A stretch of 64,000 nt of DNA from an uncultured Pseudobutyrivibrio sp. (GTDB taxonomy: Bacteria; Bacillota; Clostridia; Lachnospirales; Lachnospiraceae), in contig CAMJBT010000007.1 of the NCBI GenBank assembly GCA_946403965.1, forward strand, positions 397 through 64,396. The letters run 5' to 3'. Positions 49,509-55,680 of the stretch are shown piece after piece. How positions within the stretch are numbered: the stretch's first letter is position 1; each line of letters opens with the position of its first letter. Under the pieces are notes generated by a model that was not told the DNA's origin, did no database searches, and saw only the letters and a program-made list of their open reading frames with translations. The translations under genes and the position numbers were made by a program.

Positions 49509-49537
49509 GTGGGGCTAAATACAGTTTCAAACATAGT

Positions 49538-49561
49538 AAAAATGGGGCCCCGAAGGACCCC
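49538..49561 (-). terminator. Intrinsic terminator of fla1
   Basis: GGGGUCC-UUCG-GGGCCCC-AUUUUU. Confidence 0.88.
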
Positions 49562-49609
49562 AATTTGTGGATAGTACCGTTAAAGTACCGATGCGTTTGG
49601 CCACGCTAA

Positions 49610-51115
49610 CTACTGAAGAAGTGAAAGAACACCCTGTGTTGACTGATTTGCTTGAGCGAGCATTGACTGGCCTGCCTGAGCAAGAATATTGTTCTTGCTG
49701 TATGTAACCATTTCATCAGCCATATCTGTATCACGAATTCGAGATTCAGATGCTTCTGTGTTCTCTACTACATTATCAAGATTTGCGATTGAGTGCTCGA
49801 GTCTGTTTTGTATAGCACCAAGACCTGATCTTTGAGCAGATACCTTTGCAAGGGCGTCTGCGATTGAGTCGATTGCGTAAGTTGCTGCCTTACCTGTGGC
49901 GTCACTAACGTTTAGTCCCTGGATGCCAAGTGCTGTTGCGCTCATGCATTCGATTGTTACACCAATCTTGTTTGTCATATCAGCATCAGAGCCAACATGA
50001 AGATTGAATGAAAGGTCTTTCTGGACTGTTGCTGAACCTTTTTCGATTCTGAACTCTACCTTTACAGGTGGATCTGTCTTCACATCATCTGGCAACTTAC
50101 CATTTACTTTATCAGTGTCCTGTGTTGGATCTGTATCATCGAATGTATTATCACCTATCTTTGCAGTTGGAATTTTGATGATTGAATCACATCCAATTGA
50201 TGAAGCTGCTCTAAGTTCATTTGCCATAAGCTGATATGCCTTCGCTGCTGTAATAACTGTTGCATCCTTGTCATCAACACCATCATCTGGTTCCTTCGCG
50301 TCTGCTGTGCTGAATAAAACTGCAACCTTACCATTGTACTCAATTGTTGAGCCCTGGCTTGCGAACTTGTTAAGGTGTGATGCCTTAACCTCTGATGTAT
50401 AAGCGTTAGTCTCAGTAGAAATAGTAAATGACTTACCATCAATCTTTACTACTTCACCTACTGTAAGATGAGGTTCAGCACTTTCCTCTGCAGATGTTCC
50501 TAGAACAGTTAAGGCATTTGCTAACTGGGTAGTAGGATCATCACCTCCAACACCGATTGTATACTTTGTACCACCAATTGTTACTGTGTCACCCATTGCA
50601 AGAGCATTGATGGTGAAAGTAGCTGTTGTTGTGTTCTGTGTAAGTGTGCCTGCAAGACCTGCGTCATGAGCTGCAATAACTTGTGTCTTGGTGCCGTAGT
50701 CCCCCTTGAGAAGATAGGTCTCGTTGAACTTTGTCGTTTCAGAAACTCGATCAATCTCAGTTGTAAGCTGTAAAATCTCATCCTGAATAGATGAGCGGTC
50801 ACTTTCTGAGTTTGTTCCGTTTGCTGCCTGGACTGCCAACTCATTCATTCTCTGAAGCATTGAATGTACCTCTGTAAGGGCACCTTCGGCGGTCTGTACT
50901 GCTGAGATACCATCTGATGCGTTTGTTGATGCCTGATCAAGACCTCGAATCTGCTTGCGCATTTTCTCAGAAATTGAAAGACCTGCTGCATCGTCTGCGG
51001 CTCTATTAATTCTAAAACCAGATGAAAGTTTCTCAGTAGATTTAGACTGAGCATTTGTTGTAATTCCTAACATTCTTGAAGCATTAGCTGCCTGCATATT
51101 GTGTTGTACTACCAT
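49610..51115 (-). CDS. fliC: Flagellin (fla1), 501 aa
   Basis: Conserved N-terminal (RINRAADDAAGL) and C-terminal (LGAIQNRLE, SRIRDTD) D0/D1 regions. The true start is ATG 51115 after AAGGAGG, not 51268. Confidence 0.97.
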   Translation of the reverse strand: MVVQHNMQAANASRMLGITTNAQSKSTEKLSSGFRINRAADDAAGLSISEKMRKQIRGLDQASTNASDGISAVQTAEGALTEVHSMLQRMNELAVQAANGTNSESDRSSIQDEILQLTTEIDRVSETTKFNETYLLKGDYGTKTQVIAAHDAGLAGTLTQNTTTATFTINALAMGDTVTIGGTKYTIGVGGDDPTTQLANALTVLGTSAEESAEPHLTVGEVVKIDGKSFTISTETNAYTSEVKASHLNKFASQGSTIEYNGKVAVLFSTADAKEPDDGVDDKDATVITAAKAYQLMANELRAASSIGCDSIIKIPTAKIGDNTFDDTDPTQDTDKVNGKLPDDVKTDPPVKVEFRIEKGSATVQKDLSFNLHVGSDADMTNKIGVTIECMSATALGIQGLNVSDATGKAATYAIDSIADALAKVSAQRSGLGAIQNRLEHSIANLDNVVENTEASESRIRDTDMADEMVTYSKNNILAQAGQSMLAQANQSTQGVLSLLQ

Positions 51116-51119
51116 AATT

Positions 51120-51161
51120 TCTACCTCCTTGTAGATACTCTTGTGATTCCATTCATAAGAG
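51120..51161 (-). promoter_or_regulatory. Tandem CsrA-type hairpins in the fla1 leader
   Basis: CUCUU..AUGGAA..AAGAG, then UCUAC-AAGGAG-GUAGA with the SD in the loop; same architecture as Bacillus hag. Confidence 0.8.
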
Positions 51162-51463
51162 ATGCGATGAACGCATAACATAAAATTTAAAGTTTCAATG
51201 ATTAGGAATGCTACATACTTTAGGCTGCATCCGTATCTATATAACAAGGGAGTGACCAACCTCCGCATGCTACCAAAGGAAGAAATCTCACTATTTTCTG
51301 AACTGCTTGGTCTCAGAAAATAACGAGCAGTAGTATAACAGCTTTATTAAATTGTAAAGCTACGATTCAGTAGTAACTCTTCCGCGCGATAGATGAAAAA
51401 TTACCACCTGGAAGGACAACAAAAACTTGATAAATTTAAGTTTACTGTTTCCATCTACTTTAA

Positions 51464-51490
51464 TTATCGGAATAGGGGGGAAAAACTTTA
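51464..51490 (-). promoter_or_regulatory. Sigma28 (SigD/FliA) promoter of fla1
   Basis: TAAAG-N14-TCCGATAA. Confidence 0.85.
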
Positions 51491-51501
51491 GAACAAAATA
51501 G

Positions 51502-51533
51502 AAAAAAAGAGGACCTCCCGAAGGAAGTCCCCT
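51502..51533 (-). terminator. Intrinsic terminator of fla2
   Basis: GGGGACUUCC-UUCG-GGAGGUCCUC-U7. Confidence 0.9.
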
Positions 51534-51607
51534 AATTTACTAGTATTTAAACTAGTCTGCGCGAAACGATTAACTGGATTCTAACTAATCAAAAACTAAT
51601 TGCTAGA

Positions 51608-53077
51608 TTATCCAAGGATTGATAATACGCCCTGTGTTGACTGGTTAGCCTGTGCAAGCATTGCCTGACCTGCCTGCTGAAGAATGTTATTCTTGCTGTA
51701 GTTAACCATTTCATCTGCCATGTCTGTATCACGGATACGTGATTCAGAAGCATTTGTATTCTCAACTACGTTGTCTACGTTAGCGATTGTGTGCTCTAAT
51801 CTGTTCTGGATAGCACCGAGTGAAGATCTCTGTGCAGATACCTTTGAAACAGCGTCAGCGATTGCATCGATAGCGTATGTAGCAGCTTTACCTGTAGCAT
51901 CAGCAACATTAAGTCCCTGAATACCAAGTGAAGCAGAGCTCATGTCTGTGATTGTAACGCCAATCTTGTTTGTCATATCAGCGTCAGAACCAACATGAAG
52001 GTTGAATGTAAGGTCATTCTGAACTGAAGCCTCACCCTTTGTCATTGTGAAGGTTACTTTGTTGTCCTTCATATCAGCTGGTAACTGGTTATTGTAGTCA
52101 GCCTCTTTATATGATGCACTTGTGCCACCTTCATCAATTGATCCTTTAGTTGGCGCTTTAATAACTTCATCTGCTCCAATTGAAGAAGCTGCACGAAGTT
52201 CATTTGCAATAAGTTCATAAGCCTTATCAGCTGTGATAAGTGTTGAATCCTTCTCATCAACACCATCTTTAGGACCATCTTCTTTGTTAAATAATGTTAC
52301 TGACTTACCGTTGTACTCAATTGTTGAGCCCTGGCTTGCAAAGAGATTAAGCTGTGTTGCAGCAACTTCTGATGTATCAGCATTTGTAGTTTTAGCAATA
52401 GTAAATGACTTTCCATCAATCTTAACTACTTCACCAATCTCCAAATCATCCTCAGATGTGCCAAGAACTGTAAGACCATTTGCGAGCTGCTTATCAGGAT
52501 CATCACCAGCTACACCAATTGTGTACTTTGTACCACCGATTGTGTATGTATCGCCCATTGCAAGAGCATTCATTGTAAATGTAGCTGTTGTGGTGTTCTG
52601 TGTAAGTGTTCCTGCAAGACCTGCATCATGAGCAGCGATCTTGATTGTCTTTGTACCATAATCGCCCTTAAGAAGATAGGTCTCGTTGAATTTTGTTGTC
52701 TCAGCAACACGGTCAATTTCTGTTGTAAGCTGATTAATTTCGTCCTGGATAGAAGAACGATCAGACTCACTGTTTGTTCCGTTTGCTGCCTGTACTGCAA
52801 GCTCGTTCATTCTCTGAAGCATTGAGTGAACTTCTGTTAAAGCACCTTCAGCTGTCTGCACTGCAGATACACCGTCCTGAGCATTTGTAGATGCCTGATC
52901 AAGACCTCTAATCTGCTTGCGCATCTTTTCTGAAATTGAAAGACCAGCTGCGTCATCAGCTGCACGGTTAATCTTAAAACCAGATGCTAACTTCTCTGTT
53001 GACTTAGACTGATTTCCTGCTGTGATGTTGAGCATTCTTGAAGCATTGGATGCTTGCATATTGTGTTGTACTACCAT
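51608..53077 (-). CDS. fliC: Flagellin (fla2), 489 aa
   Basis: Flagellin termini as in fla1; AAGGAGG RBS. Confidence 0.97.
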   Translation of the reverse strand: MVVQHNMQASNASRMLNITAGNQSKSTEKLASGFKINRAADDAAGLSISEKMRKQIRGLDQASTNAQDGVSAVQTAEGALTEVHSMLQRMNELAVQAANGTNSESDRSSIQDEINQLTTEIDRVAETTKFNETYLLKGDYGTKTIKIAAHDAGLAGTLTQNTTTATFTMNALAMGDTYTIGGTKYTIGVAGDDPDKQLANGLTVLGTSEDDLEIGEVVKIDGKSFTIAKTTNADTSEVAATQLNLFASQGSTIEYNGKSVTLFNKEDGPKDGVDEKDSTLITADKAYELIANELRAASSIGADEVIKAPTKGSIDEGGTSASYKEADYNNQLPADMKDNKVTFTMTKGEASVQNDLTFNLHVGSDADMTNKIGVTITDMSSASLGIQGLNVADATGKAATYAIDAIADAVSKVSAQRSSLGAIQNRLEHTIANVDNVVENTNASESRIRDTDMADEMVNYSKNNILQQAGQAMLAQANQSTQGVLSILG

Positions 53078-53082
53078 AAAAT

Positions 53083-53125
53083 TCTACCTCCTTGTAGATA
53101 CTCCCGTGGATTCCTTTCCTGGGAG
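53083..53125 (-). promoter_or_regulatory. Tandem CsrA-type hairpins in the fla2 leader
   Basis: CUCCC-AGGA-AAGGAA-UCC-ACGGGAG, then UCUAC-AAGGAG-GUAGA. Confidence 0.8.
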
Positions 53126-53174
53126 ATGTGATTCGGGTAAATGCTGTGAATCACAACTTTTTTCCCTCGTCACA

Positions 53175-53265
53175 TGTTAACAATTACTAACCGCTATCCA
53201 GTAGCTAACTGAATAACTATCTATAATCAACACAGTACTCGCGCGACATACTGCATGACTATCGC
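53175..53265 (-). ncRNA. Candidate cis-regulatory RNA (H-type pseudoknot plus P3 stem) in the fla2 leader
   Basis: GCGAUA-GUCAUG-CAGUA-UGUCGC-GCGAG-UACUG, followed by a UGUUGAU/GUUAACA stem; compensatory changes relative to the fla3 copy. Confidence 0.6.
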
Positions 53266-53499
53266 TTTATTATTTCTCGTAAATCAAGAAATCAAAACAA
53301 ACTAGTAGTAAACATAATTAGTATTTAATTGTGAATGTACAATTGATAAATGGAAATAAAAACTTGAAATTATTCATCGATCCTTAACATCCTTGTTCTG
53401 TATCGAAATAGATATTTAAATGATGTTTGTAAATCTCAGATAATGAAGTCCTTTTCATTTATCTTTGGTGTGTGCCAGGTAGATAATTTAAATCCTTAT

Positions 53500-53712
53500 C
53501 TCATCCTTGCAAATTTAATATCGGATGACTTTCTTAAAACTTAACCCCTTTTTAGAAAATTTTTTATTATTTTTTATTTCATTCTAAATGCTTAGGTCAA
53601 GCTTGATTTATGGGGGTGTTATTTTTGCCCCTCATCACCCTTGCAATCTATATATCGGAAGCTCTGTTATAAACTTAACCCCTTTTTAAAAAAATTTTAT
53701 TTTTATATCTAA
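53500..53712 (-). repeat. Direct repeat (two units 134 bp apart), each carrying a sigma28 promoter
   Basis: TTAAG-N14-TCCGATAT at 53518-53544 and 53652-53678; identical aaacttaacccctttttA core and shared ccttgcaa. Confidence 0.85.
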
Positions 53713-53740
53713 AAATATTATTTTCCCTGTCTGCACACCC

Positions 53741-53774
53741 AAAAAGGACCTCCTTTATAATGAAGGAGGCCCTT
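53741..53774 (-). terminator. Intrinsic terminator of fla3
   Basis: AAGGGCCUCCUU-N7-AAGGAGGUCCUU plus a U-run. Confidence 0.88.
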
Positions 53775-53877
53775 GAATTAAGCTTATATTTCTAGTCACG
53801 GGAAAATTGGTTAATTATTCTTGAATGTTTCATTTAAATCATTCTCAAGAATTCTACACTATTAAATTATGGTTTCT

Positions 53878-55344
53878 CTACCCCAAGATAGAAAGTACTC
53901 CCTGAGTAGACTGGTTAGCCTGAGCAAGCATAGCCTGACCTGCCTGAGCAAGAATATTGTTCTTGCTGTAGTTAACCATTTCTTCTGCCATATCTGTATC
54001 ACGGATACGTGACTCAGATGCATTTGTATTCTCAACTACGTTGTCTACGTTTGCAATTGTGTGCTCTAATCTGTTCTGAATAGCACCAAGCGAAGATCTC
54101 TGTGCAGATACCTTTGAAACAGCGTCAGCGATTGCATCGATAGCATATGTAGCAGCCTTACCTGTAGCATCAGAAACGTTAAGTCCCTTAATACCAAGAC
54201 CTGTAGAGCTCATATCTGTAATTGTAACTCCAATCTTATTTGTCATGTCAGCATCAGAACCAACATGAAGGTTAAATGTAAGGTCATTCTGAACTGTAGC
54301 TTCACCCTTTGTAAGAGAGAACTCAACAGTCTTATCTTTTACATCGGTAGGCATCTTTCCATTTGAATCAGTTGCATTAGCTGCTGCTGATGCAGTTCCA
54401 GTACCAACTTTAATTGTTCCATCTTTAACAGCTGTTGTTGCTCCAATGTTTGAAGCAGCCTTAAACTCATTCAAAATAAGATTATATGCCTTTTCCTCAG
54501 TAATAAGCTGTCGATTATTCTTATCAACACCATCACTAGGAGCCTTACCTGATGCTTCACTAAATAATGTTACAGACTTTCCATTGTACTCAATAGTAGA
54601 TCCCTGACCAGCAAATGTGCCAATCTCATCTTTCTTTACTTCTGCTGTATCAGAATTTGTTTTATCAGCAACTGTAAATGACTTACCATCAATCTTAATT
54701 ACTTCGCCATCATCAAGATTGTCTGCACCTAATACTTTAAGTGCATTTTCAAGTTGCTTTTCCTTGTTATCTCCAGAAACACCAATTGTGTACTTTGTTC
54801 CACCAATTGTATAGCTGTCGCCCATTGCCAACTGATTCATTGTAAATGTAGCCTTTGATGTATTCTGAGTAAGTGTTCCATCAAGACCTGCATCATGAGC
54901 TGCAATTTTGATAGTCTTTGTGCCATAGTCACCTTTTAATAGGTATGACTCGTTAAACTTTGTTGTCTCAGCAACACGATCGATTTCAGTTGTAAGCTGG
55001 TTAATTTCATCCTGGATAGAAGAACGATCTGACTCACTGTTTGTTCCGTTTGAAGCCTGAACTGCAAGTTCATTCATTCTCTGAAGCATTGAATGAACTT
55101 CTGTAAGAGCACCTTCAGCTGTCTGCACTGCAGAAACACCATCCTGTGCATTTGTAGAAGCCTGAGAAAGACCTCTAATCTGCTTACGCATCTTTTCTGA
55201 AATTGAAAGGCCAGCTGCATCATCTGCTGCGCGGTTAATCTTAAATCCGCTTGCCAACTTTTCAGTTGATTTTGCCTGGCTTCCAGAAGTGATGTTAAGC
55301 ATTCTTGAAGCGTTACTTGCCTGCATGTTGTGTTGTACTACCAT
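53878..55344 (-). CDS. fliC: Flagellin (fla3), 488 aa
   Basis: Flagellin termini as in fla1; AAGGAGG RBS. Confidence 0.97.
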   Translation of the reverse strand: MVVQHNMQASNASRMLNITSGSQAKSTEKLASGFKINRAADDAAGLSISEKMRKQIRGLSQASTNAQDGVSAVQTAEGALTEVHSMLQRMNELAVQASNGTNSESDRSSIQDEINQLTTEIDRVAETTKFNESYLLKGDYGTKTIKIAAHDAGLDGTLTQNTSKATFTMNQLAMGDSYTIGGTKYTIGVSGDNKEKQLENALKVLGADNLDDGEVIKIDGKSFTVADKTNSDTAEVKKDEIGTFAGQGSTIEYNGKSVTLFSEASGKAPSDGVDKNNRQLITEEKAYNLILNEFKAASNIGATTAVKDGTIKVGTGTASAAANATDSNGKMPTDVKDKTVEFSLTKGEATVQNDLTFNLHVGSDADMTNKIGVTITDMSSTGLGIKGLNVSDATGKAATYAIDAIADAVSKVSAQRSSLGAIQNRLEHTIANVDNVVENTNASESRIRDTDMAEEMVNYSKNNILAQAGQAMLAQANQSTQGVLSILG

Positions 55345-55347
55345 ATA

Positions 55348-55390
55348 TCTACCTCCTTGTAGAAAGTTTCCGAGAATCCTTTCCCGGAAA
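55348..55390 (-). promoter_or_regulatory. Tandem CsrA-type hairpins in the fla3 leader
   Basis: UUUCCGGGAA-AGGA-UUCUCGGAAA, then UCUAC-AAGGAG-GUAGA. Confidence 0.8.
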
Positions 55391-55405
55391 GTGCCAAACG
55401 CACCC

Positions 55406-55490
55406 TTGGTTAATAAATACCCCTGGCTTATGTTTTAAACATAAAGCCCTTAACCAACAGTACTCCCGTGATATACTGTCCTGTTATCAC
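55406..55490 (-). ncRNA. Candidate cis-regulatory RNA (H-type pseudoknot plus P3 stem) in the fla3 leader
   Basis: GUGAUA-ACAGGA-CAGUA-UAUCAC-GGGAG-UACUG, followed by a UUGGUUAA/UUAACCAA stem. Confidence 0.6.
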
Positions 55491-55643
55491 GTTATAAAAA
55501 ATTACCTTACAGATGCTCGCTCATTCATCTGTAACATTATAATAACATCTTTTTCTGAAATTAACAGATATTTCACTAAATGTTCATACTTTTAGGGTTA
55601 ACTTTCTTTCGAAATTCACGACAGATTTTTCCTTGCAACAACT

Positions 55644-55680
55644 AAAAAAAGCATACTCCGGAACAAATCCTAGAGTATGC
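55644..55680 (-). terminator. Intrinsic terminator after znuB
   Basis: GCAUACUC-N14-GAGUAUGC-U7. Confidence 0.8.

Follow-up and report, generated by a model that had tools for sequence, protein, structure and literature searches.

Predicted CsrA operators and candidate paralogue-specific leader/3′UTR pairing in a flagellin gene array of Pseudobutyrivibrio

The subject of this analysis is an array of three flagellin genes, fla1, fla2 and fla3, in an uncultured Pseudobutyrivibrio sp. of the Lachnospiraceae, and in particular the long leaders and the 3′UTRs (untranslated sequence 3′ of the coding part) of these genes. The array lies on the minus strand of a 64,000-nucleotide stretch (hereafter the window; GenBank assembly GCA_946403965.1, contig CAMJBT010000007.1, positions 397 to 64,396), and its features are collected in Table 1. 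A terminator-like hairpin with a T run was found 3′ of each gene, in agreement with an earlier note on this DNA that had described the three genes as separately terminated, and each gene would form its own transcription unit. Arrays of two to three flagellin genes were found throughout the genus, the fla3-type gene being present in only about 6 of 34 species. The ATG of fla1 was placed at 51115 instead of at 51268, as given in the list of open reading frames (ORFs), because the Shine-Dalgarno (SD) hairpin common to the three genes and the conserved MVVQHN sequence locate it there. The mechanically called ORF adds 51 codons upstream (window 51116-51268) and runs through the SD hairpin and the leader, and the fla1 start could be open to mis-calling by automatic annotation.

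Common to the three leaders is the 16-nt SD hairpin UCUACAAGGAGGUAGA, of which the window holds three exact copies as compared with 0.05 expected. These are also the only copies in the whole 3.44-Mb assembly, even when up to two mismatches are allowed. The array genes of the genus hardly vary in this hairpin, which reads AUUAC/GUAAU in more distant sequences. In the predicted fold of each leader it is preceded by a second hairpin that displays GGA in its loop. When 33 different leaders, taken from Pseudobutyrivibrio and its relatives, were aligned, it was seen that the loop A(A/U)GGA(A/U) of this upstream hairpin is kept while the stem varies: changes on both sides were observed for 8 of the 9 stem pairs, and 90% of cells were paired, as compared with 36-50% in slid-partner controls. 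Both hairpins had been reported in the earlier note as common to the three genes, and indeed the 16-mer is exact in all three while the GGA hairpin occurs in every leader with support from covariation. The two GGA motifs of a leader are located in hairpin loops, A(A/U)GGAA and AAGGAG, one of which overlaps the SD, and their spacing of 22-23 nt suits one CsrA dimer. Furthermore, csrA (PF02599, 92 bits) and fliW (PF02623, 114 bits) are adjacent on contig C101 of the same genome, which also encodes a FliA-type sigma factor. Because of these genes, the spacing and the covarying stem, we conclude from the sequence that the SD and GGA hairpins make up the canonical operator, with two CsrA sites, on which the FliW-CsrA-flagellin switch acts, a system of known kind. 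The view that the leaders reach beyond the CsrA-FliW model consequently fails for these two common hairpins, which make up a textbook operator and include a 16-mer that recurs even in unrelated Bacillota. There, in three metagenome-assembled genomes (L108, L144, L167), the identical 16-mer and an upstream GCAAGGAUGC hairpin precede flagellin genes of the RINTNISALNAW type, the start codons of which are TTG, GTG or ATG. The CsrA BS2 hairpin could have arisen here by convergence, or it could be deeply conserved. On C101, fliW-csrA ends in a terminator, beyond which a sigma-28-like promoter (TAAACTTT..GTCGATAT) precedes a series of same-strand ORFs. Their location downstream of fliW-csrA suggests that these may be flaG-fliD-fliS, and the motifs AAGGAUGU and GUAAGGAGGA are present in the leader of the first of them.

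A counterpart is Campylobacter jejuni flaA, for which experiments that included compensatory changes established a pair of ANGGA hexaloops with a spacing of 21 nt, the ribosome-binding site being covered by the second; the stated optimum spacing of CsrA sites is 18 nt (PMC4894983). The same two-site architecture is found in Bacillus subtilis hag and Clostridioides difficile fliC (PMC8523840). The array genes resemble these members of the Hag-FliW-CsrA switch (hag BS1/BS2, flaA SL1/SL2 and fliC) in the spacing of about 21-23 nt, the covarying stems and the adjacent fliW-csrA genes. They differ in that an operator is present on each of three paralogues, that the leaders measure 185-565 nt as opposed to 45-91 nt in the known cases, and that fla2 carries extra conserved GGA hairpins. 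By analogy, CsrA would gate the translation of all three genes, for which the sequence evidence is strong, and we infer the biochemistry from the known partner switch: a CsrA dimer would span the GGA hexaloop hairpin and the SD-containing GGA hairpin and thereby block the ribosome, until flagellin export frees FliW, which would remove CsrA.

Differences between the three genes were apparent at the level of their promoters. Exactly as the earlier note had it, sigma-28-like sites (consisting of TAAAGTTT or TAAGTTT, a spacer, and CCGATAA or CCGATAT) are present once upstream of fla1 and twice upstream of fla2, and the scan detected none in the fla3 upstream region. The fla2 promoter region (window 53500-53700) is a tandem duplication of about 65 nt with 81.5% identity and a period of about 134 nt, in which each copy has a sigma-28-like site followed by UUGCAAGG(A/G)UGA; it is common only to the closest relative, G017.

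The proposed difference in AGGA count was confirmed. The fla2 leader is rich in this motif, with 8 occurrences where 1.8 were expected (p about 0.001), and no enrichment was found in the leaders of fla1 and fla3. When 17 fla2-type leaders were aligned, all of the following elements proved to be kept: a hairpin whose loop reads A(A/C)GGA, which in most species comes right after the promoter; a hairpin with CAGGACAAGGAUGUUAAGGA in its loop, the ACAAGGAUGU of which nearly matches the consensus for CsrA; a hairpin with the stem AAUUGU/ACAAUU; and the stem-loop CAGUA-UGUCGCGCGAG-UACUG. Since 3-4 further GGA loops are conserved in the fla2-type leader, this leader would probably bind extra CsrA in the manner of a titrating mRNA. 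In this respect it is reminiscent of the dual-function flaA mRNA of C. jejuni and of the CsrB-RsmZ sponges, as its several GGA loops (ACAAGGAUGU), putatively of high affinity, could titrate CsrA. However, a sponge of the CsrB/RsmZ type is a dedicated non-coding RNA, whereas the GGA loops found here, about six in number, are situated within the leader of the coding fla2 mRNA and involve no dedicated small RNA (sRNA).

Outside the SD hairpin the three leaders of the window have no detectable similarity to each other. Between orthologues, the long leaders are conserved genus-wide far upstream of the CsrA module. What leaders of the fla1 type have retained is the sigma-28 promoter, a hairpin at the 5′ end and a core of 80 nt, in which the helices P1 and P2 were 99.4% paired with double changes at four pairs, and the stem of a second hairpin also covaries. 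Of 34 Pseudobutyrivibrio genomes searched with a covariance model of this core, 26 had a single copy each, including 22 of the 23 high-quality ones, and there was no match in 149 other sampled genera of the family. Conservation of the elements singled out in the earlier note extends well past this strain, to as many as 26 of the 34 genomes. The comparison with Rfam that it had suggested was run as a covariance-model search of Rfam 15; the leaders matched no family, the only hit being a sub-threshold sbrA match on a terminator. The fla1 and fla2 leader elements are candidate new RNA families restricted to Pseudobutyrivibrio. An optional hairpin in the fla1 leader (window 51375-51400), present in about half of the species, has a loop AUCGCGCGGAA that is complementary to the fla2 3′UTR motif UUUCGCGC located about 170 nt upstream; cross-talk or a read-through structure is possible.

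One stem-loop recurs in all three leaders. UUG(N)UUAUAUAGAUA comes after the P2 hairpin of fla1 and likewise after the CAGUA hairpins of fla2 and fla3, a covarying outer helix encloses each of these hairpins, and on account of these common features they are read as one homologous stem-loop, which we refer to as the address stem-loop. Its hairpin P2 (CAGUA/UACUG) was 100% paired among 21 distinct sequences, with 4 of the 5 pairs changed on both sides, and the flanking helix P1 covaries as well. The earlier note had seen here a pseudoknot that is degenerate in fla1 and intact in fla2 and fla3, formed by S1 (GCGAUA/UGUCGC in fla2, GUGAUA/UAUCAC in fla3) and S2, the latter being identical to P2. 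While S2 is solid, only 66% of the S1 cells were paired, and the outer S1 pairs failed in 15 of the 21 sequences and in most species. In addition, the conserved GAUA is better accounted for by helix P1 than by S1. The proposed pseudoknot states are thus not conserved. The predicted fold of fla3 in this strain favours the S1 alternative, and S1 is possibly a local switch in this strain, as distinct from a conserved feature.

The loops of the address stem-loops were found to be complementary to motifs in the 3′UTRs of the same genes. Genes of the fla2 type combine the loop GUCGCGCGAG, which varies slightly in its flanks, with the 3′UTR motif UUUCGCGCAGACUAG, which immediately precedes a small hairpin and the terminator. 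This combination was present in at least 30 loci, among them single-gene loci, arrays split by kilobase insertions and two metagenome contigs. The fla3-type genes have other haplotypes, namely CACGGGA/UCCCGUG in the window, CACGCGA/UCGCGUG in G017, and CGCACGA/UCGUGCG in G007, G011 and G448; the leader loop of G442 is that of the last three genomes, and its contig stops before the 3′UTR. Including CGCGCGA/UCGCGC(A)G, there are four loop/3′UTR haplotypes with three compensatory pair positions and no disruption. The fla1 loop GUUGGUCA(C) has its complement in a 3′UTR hairpin loop, GGCCAA, both being invariant in the genus. Cognate duplexes had calculated energies of -12.6 to -14.8 kcal/mol, and in the case of fla1 and the fla3 types they were the most stable of their row. 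Furthermore, the 3′UTR motifs are unpaired in predicted folds, and they stay with their own gene where the neighbouring genes differ. The matching 3′UTR strands that had previously been remarked on for fla2 and fla3 turned out to be complementary to the leader loops of their own genes and to covary with them across species. Both UTRs of one gene accordingly carry complementary motifs that are kept by compensatory change, with one paralogue as a counter-example.

From conservation and covariation we infer how such a second layer might operate on top of the CsrA gate. The two-helix address stem-loop, conserved at about 115-175 nt upstream of each AUG, would expose a loop that forms 7-9 bp with a motif of the gene's own 3′UTR, which is either single-stranded or itself part of a loop. 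Pairing in cis could close the mRNA, and pairing in trans could make use of a 3′UTR fragment that ends at the terminator. As loop and 3′UTR motif differ between paralogues, stability or translation could be controlled for each paralogue separately. We consider it probable, with some reserve, that the three genes combine a CsrA gate on all of them with a paralogue-specific layer of leader/3′UTR pairing. The complementarity itself is plausibly a new variant of the known pairing between 5′ and 3′UTRs or between 3′UTR-derived sRNAs and their targets. More tentatively, the private, coevolving loop/3′UTR pair may close the message, or the 3′ fragment may feed back on new transcripts, so that each paralogue is autoregulated and the composition of the filament is set; this is possible, but we would not presume it.

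Several observations weigh against the pairing layer. Covariation was seen in only 3-4 haplotypes, representing perhaps two or three independent events, and no new haplotype emerged from the remaining genomes of the genus or from a metagenome scan. An unbiased best-helix scan indicated that helices of 7-9 bp are common by chance between a 300-nt leader and a 110-nt 3′UTR, and that the proposed pair is rarely the top-scoring one. Since chance complementarity is this common, the case for pairing rests on conservation together with the compensatory changes, of which there are three, spread over two or three lineages. Moreover, the palindromic CGCGCG core allows the fla2 loop to pair equally well or better with non-cognate motifs, the fla1 pair is invariant and hence consistent with pairing without offering a covariation test, and the pairing site is far from the SD. 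Finally, the middle gene of G024, G015 and G022 (L040-L042) has the address loop GUGGCGCGCGU, for which its own 3′UTR contains no complement. This middle gene is a fourth paralogue type with a variant SD hairpin, CAACUACAUGGAGGUAG, and no detected sigma-28-like site.

Some leads encountered along these lines were discarded. A high score for the fla1 leader with the fla2 3′UTR in the helix scan was an artefact of the shared terminator, and RNAduplex applied to whole leaders and 3′UTRs returned only meaningless long duplexes. Pairing of the second fla1 hairpin loop (UAAAGUAU) with the 3′UTR stretch GUACUUUA was dropped because the latter is a variable hairpin, and an apparent new haplotype in G443 was located inside a coding region. 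A family-wide pattern scan with one mismatch gave chance-level matches only, similar to the control.

The points against pairing would be accommodated if the FliW-CsrA switch acted alone, the distal hairpins being elements for mRNA stability or processing, or sites for an unknown protein, and the complementarity having no function. The frequency of chance complementarity of this length, the paralogue type without a 3′UTR partner and the small number of covarying haplotypes all speak for this explanation, and it is common for flagellin mRNAs to be long and stable and to bear 5′ stem-loops. It does not, however, readily account for three compensatory double changes at exactly matching positions without any disruption, nor for the strong conservation of both motifs while their flanks have diverged past detectable similarity between paralogues. 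For these reasons we regard it as rather unlikely. Chances are smaller still for the integrated circuit of the earlier note, in which H-type pseudoknots would switch against 3′UTR pairing and, together with promoter type and AGGA count, set the flagellin ratios. The differences in promoters and AGGA are real, fla2 and fla3 of this strain are each able to form S1 as well as S2, the fla3 fold that prefers S1 hides the bases complementary to the 3′UTR, and a flagellin 3′UTR sRNA alters filament composition in Vibrio cholerae (PMC11879080). Nevertheless, the poor pairing of S1 outside this strain, the explanation of the conserved GAUA by helix P1 and the confinement of the fla3-type gene to about 6 of 34 species make such a circuit improbable.

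An explanation at the level of DNA has also to be considered, since inverted repeats flanking each gene, serving inversion (phase variation) or a DNA-binding protein, would appear to covary too, and inversion is a known means of flagellar phase variation elsewhere among bacteria. Yet the repeats would be only 7-9 bp long, with a G-U equivalent and a bulged A, and one copy is part of an RNA hairpin loop, with G-U intermediates in the stem of that hairpin. In addition, Pfam annotation of the window revealed no recombinase gene near the array, and all arrays fetched from the genus were collinear with intact hairpins. This explanation is therefore very improbable.

Pairing between leader and 3′UTR, as favoured here, has precedents with which it can be compared. 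In Staphylococcus aureus icaR, pairing of the 5′UTR and 3′UTR of one mRNA covers the SD (PMC3868564). In the array genes, by contrast, the target is the loop of a distal hairpin, 115-175 nt upstream of the AUG, so that SD occlusion as in icaR does not apply, and the code is paralogue-specific and covarying. Flagellin 3′UTRs give rise to sRNAs in two Gram-negative bacteria: FlaX of V. cholerae represses flaB and changes the composition of the filament (PMC11879080), and FliX of Escherichia coli is derived from the 3′UTR of a flagellin gene (PMC10578931). The likeness is that here, too, a flagellin 3′UTR sequence beside the terminator is complementary to a flagellin mRNA and could tune filament composition. 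However, FlaX and FliX depend on ProQ or Hfq and act on the initiation region of another flagellin or on coding sequences, whereas the target proposed here is the gene's own leader, and neither Hfq nor ProQ was found in this genome, which is 94.8% complete.

Elsewhere, the array is flanked by a znuABC-like transporter and housekeeping genes, and in several species (L045, L048-L050, L052, L054) the array genes are 2-3.9 kb apart, with other DNA in between. Two more flagellin genes are present in the same genome, at C29:~1625 (+) and C45:~17138 (-). Each has a sigma-28-like promoter and GGA hairpins (GCUAAAUGGAUUUAGC, ACACGGAUGU), and both are without the 16-nt SD hairpin and the address hairpin. 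A 2.2-kb contig labelled as a Succinivibrio sp. metagenome-assembled genome (L095) contains a Pseudobutyrivibrio fla3-type leader and flagellin start, and is probably mis-binned.

Table 1. Features of the flagellin array, in window coordinates.
Feature	Positions	Strand	Basis or remark
fla1 coding sequence, 501 aa	49610-51115	(-)	Pfam Flagellin_N + Flagellin_C; SD hairpin and MVVQHN start
fla1 terminator	49537-49562	(-)	hairpin + T run; fold
fla1 3′UTR hairpin GCGU-GGCCAA-ACGC, loop complementary to fla1 P2 loop	49593-49606	(-)	invariant in genus
fla1 SD hairpin UCUACAAGGAGGUAGA, BS2-like	51120-51135	(-)	exact 16-mer; alignment
fla1 upstream GGA hairpin, BS1-like, hexaloop AUGGAA	51138-51161	(-)	fold + covariation
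fla1 leader core: P1, P2 with invariant loop GUUGGUCA, UUGUUAUAUAGAUAC, second hairpin	51198-51277	(-)	alignment, covariance model
fla1 sigma-28-like promoter	51464-51490	(-)	motif scan; kept in all fla1-type leaders
fla2 coding sequence, 489 aa	51608-53077	(-)	Pfam Flagellin_N + Flagellin_C
fla2 terminator	51500-51533	(-)	hairpin + T run; fold
fla2 3′UTR motif UUUCGCGCAGACUAG, complementary to fla2 address loop, unpaired in fold	51552-51566	(-)	covariation
fla2 SD hairpin UCUACAAGGAGGUAGA, BS2-like	53083-53098	(-)	exact 16-mer; alignment
fla2 upstream GGA hairpin, BS1-like, hexaloop AAGGAA	53101-53125	(-)	fold + covariation
fla2 address stem-loop: P1 AUAGUCA/UGAUUAU, P2 CAGUA/UACUG, loop UGUCGCGCGAG	53223-53262	(-)	covariation, fold
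fla2 leader hairpin, loop with ACAAGGAUGU + AAGGAU, extra CsrA-type sites	53377-53406	(-)	alignment, fold
fla2 leader hairpin, AAGGA loop	53438-53464	(-)	at transcript 5′ end in most species
fla2 proximal sigma-28-like promoter	53518-53543	(-)	motif scan
fla2 distal sigma-28-like promoter	53652-53677	(-)	motif scan
fla3 coding sequence, 488 aa	53878-55344	(-)	Pfam Flagellin_N + Flagellin_C
fla3 terminator	53741-53772	(-)	hairpin + T run; fold
fla3 3′UTR motif UUUUCCCGUGACUAG, complementary to fla3 address loop	53792-53806	(-)	covariation, fold
fla3 SD hairpin UCUACAAGGAGGUAGA, BS2-like	55348-55363	(-)	exact 16-mer; alignment
fla3 upstream GGA hairpin, BS1-like, loop AAGGAU	55367-55390	(-)	fold + covariation
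fla3 address hairpin CAGUA-UAUCACGGGAG-UACUG	55458-55478	(-)	covariation, duplex energy
fla3 putative sigma-A-like -10 box TATAAT	55536-55541	(-)	promoter region conserved in fla3 orthologues

A bacterium with several flagellins has to decide on the amount of each, and, to our knowledge, little has been learned about the setting of flagellin amounts at the post-transcriptional level apart from the recent case of FlaX in Vibrio. The CsrA part of the system described here would extend a well-known switch to rumen Lachnospiraceae. As for the pairing part, we know of no description of such pairing-based autoregulation for flagellin genes or for Gram-positive bacteria without Hfq and ProQ. If true, it would be a second documented kind of communication between the 5′ and 3′UTRs of bacterial mRNAs, in which gene-specific codes evolve by compensatory change.

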